DNA of 64,000 nt, taken from Shigella phage vb_GEC_SH_GT. The position numbers and the translations under genes are program-made. Positions 7,933-48,193 of this stretch are shown here, in pieces; positions within the stretch are counted from its first letter, which is position 1; every line of letters begins with the position of its first letter. Under the pieces are notes generated by a model, which was not told the origin of the DNA, searched no databases, and saw only the letters and a program-made list of their open reading frames with translations. The stretch is taken from the sequence record OR887633; one strand, written 5' to 3'.

Positions 7933-7957
7933 GAAAAAAGGACTCCCGAAGGAGTCC
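7933..7957 (-). terminator. intrinsic terminator with UUCG tetraloop (after soc)
   Basis: Minus strand GGACUCC-UUCG-GGAGUCC followed by UUUUUU. Confidence 0.7.
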
Positions 7958-7965
7958 TTGAATTA

Positions 7966-8202
7966 TTAACCACCTATTTGTGTAGGCGTAAACATTGCAG
8001 CATTCTTAGTTTTCCAGTCAGCTGCATCAGAAACTACAGTAGAATATGCCGCCTTTTCAGAAGGAAAGGTCTGATAATGAGAATCTGCAATACGGTGTTC
8101 ATTTGAATATACATCAAATGCTACAGAAACTTCCATACCTTTAACTTCTTTGCCTTCACCCGCTGGATGAGTAAAGGTCTTGATGTTAACGAAACCACCC
8201 AT
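7966..8202 (-). CDS. soc: small outer capsid protein Soc
   Basis: 78 aa; YVNIKTF...HYQTFPSEKAAYSTV matches Soc (closer to RB69-type than T4 as I recall); late promoter TATAAATA upstream. Confidence 0.9.
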   Translation of the reverse strand: MGGFVNIKTFTHPAGEGKEVKGMEVSVAFDVYSNEHRIADSHYQTFPSEKAAYSTVVSDAADWKTKNAAMFTPTQIGG

Positions 8203-8233: not shown

Positions 8234-8241
8234 TATTTATA
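8234..8241 (-). promoter_or_regulatory. T4-type late promoter TATAAATA for soc
   Basis: Minus-strand TATAAATA about 30 nt upstream of the soc start codon. Confidence 0.6.
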
Positions 8242-9088
8242 AACCATTTTCAAACCTCTTTATCATATTTATATAGTTTTCATCGGGATAACCTAGACTA
8301 ACTGCTAACTTTCTAAAATTGACATATTTAGGTTTGTTGTTATTAATCCATAATTCTCTAAGCTCTTTTTCATAATTCCATTTAAGTTGATTTCTGCGTG
8401 CAGTTTTGCTTAAAGTTTTTCCTTTAGCTTTTAAAGCTTTTTCGGATGATTGTTTTAATTTTTGAATATTTAAAACTTCTTCTATAGATAAATTATTTTC
8501 CTTTGAATACCTTATGCAAAAATCTTTTACTACGGCTATTAGGCAATTTTTGTGAGTACCTAAAATTTCTGGATTATTTTCTTCAACTAAAATTCCCCAA
8601 TATCTTCTGTAGCGAGGCATATCCCTTGAAATCCAGTCATTATACCAAAAATCAAAGTTGGAATACATGAAAGATTTTCTTTTGCGAAGAGTATCTTGGT
8701 TTATCCATTGCTCACGTTTATCAGCCCATAACTTAATAGTAAAGTCTTTCTCTAAGTCAGAAAGCTTCTTAAATTGCGAGCTATTTACTGAGGTCATTCT
8801 CTGGAATGCATTTAGCAATCCAAATCTTCCAGTTGAACATAAGAGATAGTGAACATATATGTGTTGATATATTGGGAGATATACTCTATTCCAAGGATAT
8901 ATTTTAAAATCACTATACTCAGGAAATGCGCATTTAGGAAGTATATGATGGGCTTCTGTTTTAGATTTAATGTGAGTGTTTAACTTATACTTATCTATAA
9001 TTTTTAAGTACTCATCTAAAAGTTCCCATTGCGGGAACTTTTCTTTAAGAGCAGATTTGAAATTAATATCCATTATCTTGACGTTCAA
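8237..9088 (-). CDS. free-standing HNH homing endonuclease (Mob-like)
   Basis: 283 aa; EAHHILPKC...N...H...H spacing matches the HNH motifs of ORFs 25678..26394 and 47340..48119; sits where T4 has segF. Confidence 0.7.
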   Translation of the reverse strand: MNVKIMDINFKSALKEKFPQWELLDEYLKIIDKYKLNTHIKSKTEAHHILPKCAFPEYSDFKIYPWNRVYLPIYQHIYVHYLLCSTGRFGLLNAFQRMTSVNSSQFKKLSDLEKDFTIKLWADKREQWINQDTLRKRKSFMYSNFDFWYNDWISRDMPRYRRYWGILVEENNPEILGTHKNCLIAVVKDFCIRYSKENNLSIEEVLNIQKLKQSSEKALKAKGKTLSKTARRNQLKWNYEKELRELWINNNKPKYVNFRKLAVSLGYPDENYINMIKRFENGL

Positions 9089-9581
9089 AATTATGTTTGT
9101 TCTTCAGGTAATAAAGTTTAAAGATTTCTTCAGCTGTAAGACCAAGACCCTGGAACATATTCAGAACGAAATGAAGAATATCAATCATTTCAAATTTAAT
9201 TTCTAACTGGTCTTGCGGAGACAAATCAGTAATTAGAGTTTCACGGCGTTCACCATGTTGAGCTTTCCAAGGCTTCCATACAGCAGATGCATCTTTTTCG
9301 CCATTGCTCATACCGCCAAGAGAAGTTAGAAGTTCGCGGAATTCATCATCAATATAATCTTTCTGATTGCGCAGCCAATCAACAACTTCACCTGCGGTAG
9401 CCAAATCATCAGGATGACGGTTATATTCAGGTTTATCTTTAGCTAAACGAACCTGTAGAGATTTCTGCATATCAAGCATAACCTGCAGCGGGTCTTTTTC
9501 ATCACCAAGAATATCCCAGTATTCATTTTGAGCTTTATCAACACCTTCGATCAAATGAGCGCATTCATTAAAATATGCCAT
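9063..9581 (-). CDS. 56: dCTP/dCDP pyrophosphatase gp56
   Basis: Start trimmed to MAYFNECAHLIEG; MazG-like all-alpha NTP pyrophosphatase; position soc-56-dam. Confidence 0.85.
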   Translation of the reverse strand: MAYFNECAHLIEGVDKAQNEYWDILGDEKDPLQVMLDMQKSLQVRLAKDKPEYNRHPDDLATAGEVVDWLRNQKDYIDDEFRELLTSLGGMSNGEKDASAVWKPWKAQHGERRETLITDLSPQDQLEIKFEMIDILHFVLNMFQGLGLTAEEIFKLYYLKNKHNFERQDNGY

Positions 9582-9641
9582 TATTTTTCCTTTCAATTCA
9601 TCAATAAGTTAAATAATTATATCATTTGAATATGTAAGCAA

Positions 9642-10430
<789 letters not shown>

Positions 10431-25636: not shown

Positions 25637-25644
25637 TATAAATA
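25637..25644 (+). promoter_or_regulatory. T4-type late promoter (TATAAATA) on plus strand
   Basis: Exact TATAAATA about 34 nt upstream of the plus-strand HNH ORF start, followed by SD AAGGA. Confidence 0.55.
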
Positions 25645-25677: not shown

Positions 25678-26394
25678 ATGAATTATAAACTAATTTATGA
25701 AAAGTTAATCTCTAATGCTAAATCTCGAAAACTTGATTGCTATACTGAATCTCATCACATTATACCACGCTGTTTAAATGGCAGCGATGATGCTTCAAAC
25801 TTAGTAGATTTAACACCAGAAGAGCACTATGTAGCTCATCAACTTTTAGTAAAAATTTATCCTTCTGAACCAAAATTAGTCTATGCTGCTAACATGATGA
25901 CAGTTTCCACGAAATACGCTAAACGCAACAATAAAACTTTCGGTTGGATTCGTCGTAAACTCTGGGAAATAGAAAAGAATAAAGAATTCTCCCAGGAGAC
26001 ACGAAAGAAAATGTCTAATGCAGTAGCTAATAAAGCAAGACTAACTTGTCCTCATTGCGGTAAATCTGGATTAAGCGGGAATATGAATCGATGGCATTTT
26101 GATAACTGCCCTAATCACCCTAATCCTAAAGTTAGACCACCGATGTCTAAAGAACACAGAAATAATATCTCAAACGGACTTAAAGCAATCGTTCTTGAAG
26201 AAACATCCTGCGAATTCTGCGGAATGATAGGCAAGAAATGCGTTATCGCAGCGCATAGAAATTTCTGCAAGAAAAATCCAAATGGACGCAAGAAAACTGA
26301 AAAGACTGGTACTTGCGTCCATTGTGGTAAAGTTACCACTTTCGGAAATTTATCAAGGTGGCATAATGATAACTGTAAATATAAACCTAGCTAA
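25678..26394 (+). CDS. free-standing HNH homing endonuclease with triple Zn-finger-like repeats (plus strand)
   Basis: 238 aa; HNH core ESHHIIPRC...N...H; three repeats of C-x2-C...RWH-x-DNC; opposite strand to neighbours; inserted between 45.2 and 46. Confidence 0.8.
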   Translation: MNYKLIYEKLISNAKSRKLDCYTESHHIIPRCLNGSDDASNLVDLTPEEHYVAHQLLVKIYPSEPKLVYAANMMTVSTKYAKRNNKTFGWIRRKLWEIEKNKEFSQETRKKMSNAVANKARLTCPHCGKSGLSGNMNRWHFDNCPNHPNPKVRPPMSKEHRNNISNGLKAIVLEETSCEFCGMIGKKCVIAAHRNFCKKNPNGRKKTEKTGTCVHCGKVTTFGNLSRWHNDNCKYKPS

Positions 26395-46345: not shown

Positions 46346-47392
46346 TCATTTATAATAACTTCGGTGGTTTTCAAGATAGACCTTCTCAAGGAAGTCATCC
46401 CAGAAACTCATGTCTACTTTTTGCTGCATACCGTTCTTAGAAGCTTCAGTAGATGCTGCTTCTACTTGATCGACCACATCTTCCAAAAACTCTTGAACCG
46501 TTTTAAATGGATGTTTACCCAACTTCACGTCGAGAATAAATGGAGCATCTTTGAGTGGATAAACCAAGTCACCAGTTTTGTAAATTTCCAATAGTTGAAG
46601 TCCACCACGACAAGCATGGCTCAAAGCTTTCCAGTCAATACCTTCGTTGGCTTCGGCCTTACGAGCACGTTCACCGTATTCAGCATCTAATTTGTTCAGT
46701 GACTGCTTAAGTTCAATAAGAGAAAGCGTTGTCTGATATTTACGACCCAACACAGTGTAGAACGTTTGTGGGCCTGTTTTCTCATGATTATGGAACACCC
46801 ATTCACAGAATTCGTTTTCTGGAAGACGATGCTTAATATCTTCAACTTTAGTACGACGCTGCTTAATAGAACCATCTTCTTGGTAATCAATCCATTGCTC
46901 AGGGATTTGATTAACTACTTTCAATACATCACGTAATGCAGCCAAACGAGAACCCTTGACGCCATATTTAGAAGCTTGCTTACGGACATATCCTAAATAG
47001 GATTTCATGTTAGTCGTATAAAAACGAGAACGGTTGTCTTGAATAAACTTCCACACATCAGGCAAATCAGATTTAACCACTAGTTCAGGTGGAGTGTGAA
47101 GCATATCCAATGCTACGGTTTCACCATCTGCTGCTAATTTAAAGAAATATTTAAGACTGTATAGTTCATGGTCAATATCATCTTTAGTGTTTTTAGATGA
47201 TGTGTTGTTAGTGTTTTTGCTCATATGCTCTTTGACATTTCCGATAAGAATATCGCGAGCAGGAGGAACAAAGATTTCTTTAAAATCTACATCAGATTCT
47301 GGGGTAGAAGTTCCATAAAGATGACTACCAAAATAAGACTTAACTACAGTTTTCATTATTAGACCTTTCATAATCTTCATTAAATTGTACAA
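46346..47392 (-). CDS. Pol-beta superfamily nucleotidyltransferase-like protein
   Basis: 348 aa; N-terminal GS-x10-DVD motif (GSHLYGTSTPESDVDF); start may be an internal Met. Confidence 0.6.
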   Translation of the reverse strand: MYNLMKIMKGLIMKTVVKSYFGSHLYGTSTPESDVDFKEIFVPPARDILIGNVKEHMSKNTNNTSSKNTKDDIDHELYSLKYFFKLAADGETVALDMLHTPPELVVKSDLPDVWKFIQDNRSRFYTTNMKSYLGYVRKQASKYGVKGSRLAALRDVLKVVNQIPEQWIDYQEDGSIKQRRTKVEDIKHRLPENEFCEWVFHNHEKTGPQTFYTVLGRKYQTTLSLIELKQSLNKLDAEYGERARKAEANEGIDWKALSHACRGGLQLLEIYKTGDLVYPLKDAPFILDVKLGKHPFKTVQEFLEDVVDQVEAASTEASKNGMQQKVDMSFWDDFLEKVYLENHRSYYK

Positions 47393-48119
47393 TCAATCGA
47401 TGATAATTAGATTTTGGATATCCTAATTTACTTATATAAGTTCCGAATGACCCACGTTTAGGTCTATTTAATTTAATCCATAACTTATAAAGTAAGTCAT
47501 AGTCTTGCCAATGTTTACCAGTTCTTTGTCTAATTTTAGATGAATTTGATTGTTTCTTTTTAGTTTCAAAATTATTCAAAGATTTTTTGACTGCAGCAGA
47601 GTGTTTTTCTTTAACTCCCGGCCGTTTAAAAGCAGCTTTCACCCCTTTAGATATTTTTTCTTTAACTTCCGGTTTGTTTTGTGCTTCTAACTGGGATTCT
47701 GAAATTTTAGCCCTTATTTCAGGAAGACTTAATGTTATCGAACGTTTTTCTCTGTATTCATTAGACTTCCACATTTCTTTCATTGTATTAGAATGTATTT
47801 TTGAAAATTTTTCTCTAACTAACTGATATCCTCTTGAAGTTAATTTGAGATTTCTTCCTAAAGAATCTTCTCCAAAATTATAAAATGACCACCATGCATA
47901 AATTAATCCAGGCGAATTATAATGAATTTTAGCTAAAAGCCAATGGGCTATAAAATGCTCTCTAGCTGTTAATAAAACTAGATTATCAGAATCATCATTA
48001 CCACCAATACAAGATGGAATAATATGATGCTTTTCCGTATAAAAATTTAATTTAGATTTATCTAATTTTCTGAGTTTTCCTTTCTTAATTAAATTATTAT
48101 ATACTTTAGTATAATTCAT
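47340..48119 (-). CDS. free-standing HNH homing endonuclease (MobD-like)
   Basis: 259 aa; EKHHIIPSC...NLVLLTAREHFIAH; N-terminus paralogous to ORF 25678..26394. Confidence 0.75.
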   Translation of the reverse strand: MNYTKVYNNLIKKGKLRKLDKSKLNFYTEKHHIIPSCIGGNDDSDNLVLLTAREHFIAHWLLAKIHYNSPGLIYAWWSFYNFGEDSLGRNLKLTSRGYQLVREKFSKIHSNTMKEMWKSNEYREKRSITLSLPEIRAKISESQLEAQNKPEVKEKISKGVKAAFKRPGVKEKHSAAVKKSLNNFETKKKQSNSSKIRQRTGKHWQDYDLLYKLWIKLNRPKRGSFGTYISKLGYPKSNYHRLIVQFNEDYERSNNENCS

Positions 48120-48193
48120 TGGTTCTTCGTCTCATTTAATTTTGCTTTGCATTTATAACACATGTCTGTTCCACTTGAAATAAACATATTTCC

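Follow-up and report, generated by a model that had tools for sequence, protein, structure and literature searches.

A predicted Mob-type HNH endonuclease gene between gene 56 and soc of a T4-like Shigella phage

The window, a stretch of 64,000 nucleotides of the Shigella phage vb_GEC_SH_GT (OR887633), derives from a T4-like Tequatrovirus that is ~96% identical to several public phages in the collection searched, in which no identical phage was found. On the minus strand of the window, the genes are ordered dam (9642-10421), gene 56 (9063-9581), an endonuclease ORF, and soc (7966-8202), followed by a soc terminator hairpin (7938-7959) at the 3' side of soc. Gene 56 encodes the dCTPase/dUTPase (phrog_173, E = 1.5e-46) and is the upstream host gene of the ORF, and soc, which encodes the small outer capsid protein (Pfam Soc, E = 8.6e-21), is the downstream host gene.

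The first-pass annotation had placed a 283-aa ORF between soc and gene 56. The existence of this ORF and its two flanks stand, whereas its length probably does not. The maximal ORF in the ORF listing (8237..9088, minus strand, 283 aa) starts with a TTG. Translation probably begins at the ATG at 9073 rather than at the TTG at 9088: the ATG is conserved across genera and is used by all of the public annotations, giving a product of 278 aa that begins with MDINFKS..., whereas the TTG is not conserved and is replaced by TCG in phage KM16. The coding sequence is thus taken here as 8237..9073 (minus strand, 278 aa plus the stop).

The identical protein is present in GenBank and UniProt under the automated names 'HNH endonuclease' or 'homing endonuclease' (e.g., AYJ74546.1 of Yersinia phage fPS-2), and the gene is annotated as an HNH/homing endonuclease in ~30 public phage genomes, while the record of ACG-C40 mislabels it as SegA-like. 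No description or test of an HNH gene at 56/soc was found in the literature covered, which took in only a minority of the subscription journals. The gene is an ordinary example of such a putative homing element.

To define the boundaries of the inserted segment (the cassette), the 56-soc interval was aligned for the window, ACG-C40, T4, T2, JEP6, SfPhi01, PD112, and IME537. The homology is lost directly behind the stop of gene 56 (9063) and is regained at the late promoter TATAAATA (8234-8241). At the gene 56 end of the cassette, the final codons of gene 56 (..D N G Y stop) contain the endonuclease start, so that the two genes overlap by 11 nt, ATGGATATTAA (9063..9073, minus strand). Gene 56 ends with ..GAT AAT GGA TAT TAA, the +1 frame of which reads ATG GAT ATT AA., and segF homologues in other genera exhibit the same ATG arrangement, with ATGGCTATTAA. 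In contrast, the endonuclease-free phages have ..GAC CGA GGT TAT TAA at the same place, with no ATG. No Shine-Dalgarno sequence was found at the endonuclease ATG (9073), which therefore points to translational coupling or re-initiation. The overlap of segF with gene 56 is also 11 bp, and coupling or re-initiation has been proposed for segF too (PMC2988022).

On the soc side, the T4-type soc late promoter TATAAATA (8234..8241, minus strand) forms the right boundary of the cassette. It covers the endonuclease stop (8237-8239), which lies within TTTATAAATA; the overlap between the soc late promoter and the ORF's 3' end had been stated correctly in the first-pass annotation. The stop of segF likewise overlaps the promoter. 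The octamer is not over-represented in the whole window (7 copies, as compared to 10.9 expected), so the promoter call is based on its positional conservation upstream of soc, where T4, T2, and other phages have the soc late promoter at the aligned position. Within the 3' part of the endonuclease ORF, 25 nt ahead of the soc late promoter, TATAAATA occurs a second time in exact form (8266-8273, minus strand). This copy is probably non-functional, because it is replaced by TATAAACA in the Klebsiella, Moonvirus, and Gaprivervirus copies of the gene.

No promoter belonging to the endonuclease gene itself was found at the locus. Upstream of gene 56 (~9616-9640), the window and T4 have in common the sequence TGCTTA-13 nt-TATAAT, which, judging from the MotA-box consensus and the annotation of oriA in T4, looks like the T4 middle promoter for gene 56 and segF.

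The 5' end of the ORF contains a perfect 10-bp hairpin, AAAAGUUCCC-GCAAU-GGGAACUUUU (9018..9042, minus strand; z about -3), beginning 21 nt after the gene 56 stop. The hairpin is unchanged in five genera, while dS elsewhere in the gene reaches 0.88, and in T4 segF a GC-rich hairpin, with UUUU behind it, lies at a similar place. We infer that the hairpin attenuates expression of the endonuclease gene or ends the gene 56 message. In ACG-C40, the 5-nt loop is reverse-complemented, reading ATTGC as compared to GCAAT in the window (9028-9032), with the stem intact. This is a classic hairpin-loop inversion, which changes the protein from FPQWELL in the window to FPLRELL in ACG-C40.

The ORF contains the motif EAHHILPKC...N...H...H, the codons of which were read directly in the sequence (H42/H43 at 8945-8950, N62 at 8888-8890, and H71 at 8861-8863). 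From the alignments, the AlphaFold2 (AF2) model, and the codons, the HNH catalytic core was assigned to residues 39-79 (TEAHHILPKC...WNRVYLPIYQHIYVHYLL; 8837..8959, minus strand), with H42/H43, N62, H71, and H75 as its key residues. Among the PHROGs, the ORF matched phrog_655 'homing endonuclease' with E = 9e-34 and phrog_12434 'HNH endonuclease' with E = 5.5e-10. It matched T4 MobD over the full length in BLASTP (E = 4e-10), and tblastn retrieved relatives with 25-42% identity at other loci of T4-like phages, annotated as mobC, mobE, or Mob-like.

A word-indexed protein search yielded only three proteins, and the family emerged from an exhaustive HMMER search, which returned 713 homologues at E <= 1e-3. 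In the alignment with T4 MobB, MobC, MobD, and MobE, residues E40, H42, H43, I44, P46, N62, V64, L66, H71, and H75 were invariant. In an alignment of 80 distant homologues, H71 was invariant, and H42, H43, I44, P46, N62, L66, and H75 were conserved in at least 90% of the sequences. In the HNH (beta-beta-alpha-metal) superfamily, the general base is a histidine that closes the first strand, mostly as part of an HH pair, an asparagine lies between the strands, and a histidine of the helix behind them is a metal ligand; these positions correspond to H42/H43, N62, and H71 and H75 of the ORF. The profile of these 80 homologues was compared by hhalign with a Mob-family profile built from T4 MobB-E and the two other Mob-like genes of the window, resulting in a probability of 99.6% and E = 1e-24.

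Conversely, the HNH models of Pfam and NCBIfam (PF01844 and its relatives) did not match the ORF even at E <= 1. T4 MobB, MobC, and MobE themselves pass PF01844 only marginally. The loop connecting the HH pair to the asparagine is FPEYSDFKIYPW in the ORF, as compared to GGxDD in canonical Mob proteins, and it is because of this difference that the ORF escapes the Pfam HNH model. With no Pfam or NCBIfam match, the HNH assignment is based on the homology to the Mob proteins. This homology makes the ORF a member of the T4 Mob family, whose HNH endonucleases are free-standing. The first-pass annotation had noted an HNH spacing like that of the other Mob-like genes, and the phrog_655 match and the profile comparison with MobB-E bear it out; the profile search that it called for, as a check on whether the product is a nuclease, found the Mob/HNH homing-endonuclease family.

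The window contains two further Mob-like genes. One of them (25678-26394, plus strand, 238 aa) is an HNH gene located between an rpbA-like ORF and gene 46, on the strand opposite to that of its neighbours; its C-terminus carries three Cys-rich CxxC...W(H/N)xDNC repeats, and TATAAATA is present just upstream (25637-25644). The other (47343-48131, minus strand), a 263-aa stop-to-stop ORF that is MobD-like, matches the T4 Mob profile better than anything else in the window, and also gives a weak Pfam HNH match.

An AF2 model from the single sequence was unusable (pLDDT 41), and was replaced by a model from the 80-sequence alignment, with an overall pLDDT of 85.8. In the latter model, residues 1-130 have pLDDT values >90, and the region of the HNH core >95. 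Strands 39-43 and 63-67 and helix 68-79 are predicted around H43, N62, and H71, in a beta-beta-alpha topology. Residues 140-230 form long helices of low confidence, and residues 230-277 form a three-helix bundle with pLDDT >92. A Foldseek search of the PDB with the model returned no match, and a profile search of the PDB sequences returned only an insignificant match to PARP1. Among the predicted viral structures (BFVD), orthologues aside, the best matches were a MobD-like homing endonuclease (1.8e-10), MobE, and other HNH, Mob, and NUMOD endonucleases.

The C-terminal three-helix module (residues ~228-278, ELWINNNKPKYVNFRKLAVSLGYPDENYINMIKRF; 8240..8392, minus strand) is common to MobD and, weakly, to SegF, and is presumed to be a DNA-binding domain that is helix-turn-helix-like. 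Residues ~139-189 exhibited a possible similarity to residues 231-276 (E = 0.004-0.02), which is only suggestive; a degenerate second copy of the module may be present in the low-confidence middle region.

In T4 (NC_000866), the 56/soc slot is filled by segF, a gene of 224 aa annotated as GIY-YIG, as the first-pass annotation had stated; the junction comparison with T4 accordingly yielded a different gene from that of the window. The ORF and SegF were compared by BLASTP (E = 0.069) and by hhalign, which aligned 38 C-terminal columns with E = 5.5e-5 and a probability of 66%. Outside this short C-terminal motif, no similarity of the ORF to SegF, and none to its N-terminal GIY-YIG domain, was detected. 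The idea of a different endonuclease family at the same hotspot is thus upheld, since SegF has no similarity to the ORF in the nuclease domain. The C-terminal half of MobD was matched more clearly, both by SegF (6e-6) and by the ORF (4e-10) in BLASTP. The MobD-like C-terminal halves of the two proteins agree with the description of SegF as a 'hybrid' in a review (PMC2988022). An in-place domain swap, for which a C-terminal module specially close to that of SegF would speak, was considered; the module is closer to that of MobD, and the idea is unsupported beyond the weak homology.

The full cassette is present at 56/soc in ~27 of the 756 matching phage records, and 30 records contained the endonuclease at >=80% identity in tblastn. 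The hosts of the carriers are Escherichia, Shigella, Yersinia, Citrobacter, Klebsiella, and Salmonella. The carriers represent five Tevenvirinae genera, namely Tequatrovirus, Moonvirus (KM16), Gaprivervirus (DK-13), Dhakavirus (005), and that of a Klebsiella phage with no genus in its record. Across the carriers, the cassette is 85-99% identical and the flanks are 70-83% identical. The nucleotide identities to the window of the endonuclease gene, gene 56, and soc were 97.1, 77.9, and 72.4% for the Klebsiella phage SmallBear_ER8, 92.2, 80.7, and 69.7% for KM16, and 85.4, 77.1, and 79.9% for DK-13, respectively. Between the window and SmallBear, dS was 0.12 for the endonuclease gene and 1.12 for gene 56. 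The dS of the cassette is therefore about ten times lower than that of gene 56 between genera, indicating recent horizontal spread.

The dN/dS of the endonuclease gene was about 0.08, ranging from 0.07 to 0.11 in all pairs; the gene is under strong purifying selection. Conversely, the copy in phage 005 is a frameshifted, decayed pseudogene. Taken together, a patchy distribution, recent horizontal spread, purifying selection, and the decay of an occasional copy form the signature that is usual for an active homing endonuclease gene.

The slot is also occupied by other genes, or by none. SegF-like genes are present in ~61 records. In 43 gene 56 loci from IMG/VR, most carry small ORFs (soc.1/soc.2-like or a 46-aa ORF), two carry segF homologues, one, which is phage 005 itself, carries the HNH gene, and several are truly empty, the stop being followed by 0-3 nt and then by TATAAATA. 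The junctions of the IMG/VR loci L019, L027, and L020-L023 are empty and read TAA + GT + TATAAATA.

Several rearrangements were observed around the slot. In the IMG/VR copy of Escherichia phage vB_EcoM_005 (L040 1562-2405; also L011), gene 56 is partly duplicated: in a fusion ORF, the first 19 codons of the HNH gene (MDINFKSVLKEKFPQWELL), which end exactly at the hairpin, continue in frame with gene 56 from ~codon 54, and the frameshifted HNH copy follows. This fusion looks like a footprint left at the hairpin by a template switch or by a repair that failed. In IME537 (L005 1541-2191), L029 (1340-1996), and L040 (746-1396), another Mob-type HNH gene, of ~217 aa, is located directly upstream of gene 56; it is absent from the window, and has NUMOD3-like repeats and the same C-terminal module. 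Some relatives thus have an endonuclease slot on either side of gene 56.

The Soc of the window (7966-8202) is a different allele from the Soc of T4 and T2 (T4 L002 1832-2074). In the loci matching both, the two Soc types are ~45-50% identical, whereas the downstream terminator is almost identical, so that soc has at least two divergent allelic types, which are independent of the slot occupant. In SmallBear_ER8 (L008 430-664), soc is annotated as two overlapping short CDSs, which points to a frameshift or a sequencing error beside the HNH cassette.

The last 45 nt of gene 56 (9063..9107, minus strand), which travel with the cassette, are a candidate co-conversion tract or immunity polymorphism. 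As compared to JEP6, which is endonuclease-free and otherwise close, gene 56 of the window exhibited 6.1% differences in the first 474 nt and 35.6% differences (16/45) in the last 45 nt, whereas the window and T4 exhibited no differences (0/45) in the latter. Between the window and the Klebsiella phage, a tract of high identity extends from ~40 nt before the gene 56 stop to the last endonuclease codons. Overall, the cassette takes along ~45 nt or more from the end of gene 56, and nothing from the soc side. Such a one-sided transfer is expected if the break or nick occurs at the junction itself or towards gene 56.

The gene 56 tail of the endonuclease-free phages (..AAAAATGCTGAAAACTTCGCTCGTCAAGACCGAGGTTATTAA) is strikingly uniform across genera, and would therefore make a good target. 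A DNA pattern scan of IMG/VR for the cassette-linked tail returned phage 005 alone. However, the tail linked to the cassette is at the same time the native tail of the T4 type, and one that resembles it is present at the empty junctions L019 and L027. The tail is thus only a candidate immunity polymorphism, and the target can be placed only tentatively: its most likely position is the 3' end of gene 56 or the vicinity of this end, or else the empty 56/soc junction, a placement that we hold with less than even confidence and that is the least certain step. At L019 and L027, an empty junction follows the ..NFERQDNGY tail that characterises the carriers, except that AATGG is replaced by AACGG; to obtain the endonuclease ATG there, one synonymous change from AAC to AAT would be enough.

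From these observations, we consider it quite probable that the ORF 8237-9073 (minus strand) is a functional free-standing Mob (HNH, beta-beta-alpha-metal) homing endonuclease gene in an optional 56/soc slot. The endonuclease gene would have no promoter of its own and would be co-transcribed with gene 56, as is segF in T4, and would be translated at a low level by coupling or re-initiation at the ATG located 11 nt inside gene 56, while the conserved 5' hairpin may further dampen its expression. With the stop in the soc late promoter and the ATG in gene 56, expression of both host genes would be left intact. In a co-infection with an endonuclease-free relative, the helix-turn-helix-like C-terminal module would bind a specific site, and the HNH domain would nick or cut the bound site on the endonuclease-free genome. 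T4 recombination-dependent repair, with the carrier genome as the template, would then transfer the cassette to the recipient along with no less than the final ~45 nt of gene 56, and the recipient markers near the cassette would be excluded.

Other readings of the locus were weighed against homing. The ORF could be a domesticated or catalytically dead Mob relic that no longer homes and serves, for example, to regulate through DNA binding or to space gene 56 and soc so that their expression stays intact. Purifying selection would also fit such a host-beneficial, non-nuclease role, the canonical HNH HMMs miss the ORF, a divergent loop replaces GGxDD, and T4 itself keeps Mob genes of unknown activity (PMC2988022, Table 1). 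However, all of the HNH positions are retained across the 80 distant homologues, the tenfold difference in dS between the cassette and gene 56 across genera signifies recent horizontal spread, and the patchy distribution with one decayed copy fits the life cycle of a selfish element, so that a relic appears improbable. The more extreme reading, in which the ORF is not a nuclease gene and its HNH-like spacing arose by chance in an AT-rich ORF, draws on the missing Pfam and NCBIfam matches, but is hardly credible: judging from the homology (E = 1e-24 for the Mob family and 9e-34 for PHROG 655), the conservation of the motif in a family of 713 homologues, and the dN/dS of about 0.08, it is already effectively refuted.

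The spread of the cassette could also be attributed mainly to ordinary recombination at the gene 56 tail and TATAAATA, with the endonuclease contributing little. Between genera, the tract has sharp ends, one of them ~40 nt inside gene 56 and the other precisely at the late promoter, and the same two boundaries enclose unrelated occupants (segF, soc.1/soc.2, the 46-aa ORF, or nothing), as this reading would predict. It leaves unexplained, however, the strong conservation of the protein including its catalytic residues, and experiments have shown that both SegF, the T4 occupant of the slot, and MobE move by means of their nuclease activity (PMC2988022). We regard ordinary recombination as the main cause as distinctly improbable, although it is compatible with homing, and the two mechanisms are not exclusive. 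A further reading concerns the slot as a whole: GIY-YIG and HNH domains may have been swapped onto one scaffold, consisting of the start inside gene 56, the 5' hairpin, the stop in the soc late promoter, and a related C-terminal module; the 3' end of gene 56 would then contain overlapping targets of both elements, which would compete with, or immunise against, each other. We consider this rather unlikely; if true, the slot would be a natural test system for homing-endonuclease competition and nuclease-domain replacement.

A functional homing endonuclease gene at this position would be a second, mechanistically different selfish nuclease at a classic homing hotspot, as 56/soc is where "intronless homing" was first defined, with SegF. 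The shared start codon, boundaries, and gene 56 tail mean that crosses between segF, HNH, and empty phages could test endonuclease competition directly. Such crosses would also address the origin of immunity alleles in an essential gene, and nick- as compared to double-strand-break-driven gene conversion. In practical terms, the protein is a candidate site-specific nickase, and gene 56 and soc are marked as a recombination-prone region in therapeutic T4-like phages. No concept is changed by this element.

The closest system by position is T4 SegF (gp69), reportedly described by Belle, Landthaler and Shub in 2002 as a GIY-YIG homing endonuclease at 56/soc. The HNH gene occupies the same slot with the same left and right boundaries, and shares with segF the identical ATG, the 11-nt overlap with gene 56, the first three codons (M-D-I), a hairpin early in the ORF, a stop that overlaps the soc late promoter, the identical last 45 nt of gene 56 in T4 and the window, and a weakly similar C-terminal motif, HW..ELW...KP. 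In contrast, the GIY-YIG nuclease domain of SegF is unrelated to the HNH domain observed here. SegF makes double-strand breaks, whereas the characterised Mob-type HNH enzymes nick one strand (PMC2988022). SegF cuts gene 56 of T2 and drives marker exclusion, and Mob enzymes nick DNA and are over-inherited (PMC2988022, PMC2330249).

The closest system by descent is the T4 Mob family (MobA-E). As in these proteins, above all MobD, the N-terminal HNH domain of the ORF exhibits the motif TExHHI(I/L)P...N.V.L....H..AH, and the gene is likewise free-standing and intergenic, with no promoter of its own and a start overlapping the upstream gene. MobD also has in common with it the C-terminal module ELWI..N.PK...F......LGYP..NY..I..F. 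The ORF differs from the T4 Mob proteins in its low overall identity (only 15-25%), in the longer HH-N loop (FPEYSDFKIYPW rather than GGxDD), in lacking NUMOD1 and NUMOD3 repeats, in its low-confidence helical middle region, and in its location at 56/soc, whereas the T4 genes are located at nrdC.11/mobD.1, nrdA/nrdB, and other Mob sites. The nickases characterised to date include MobA, MobE, and I-HmuI (PMC2988022). Like MobE of T4 and I-HmuI of the Bacillus phage SPO1, the ORF has an HNH motif joined to a separate, presumably DNA-binding region, and, by this likeness, would be expected to make a site-specific nick that stimulates recombination-dependent gene conversion (PMC2988022).
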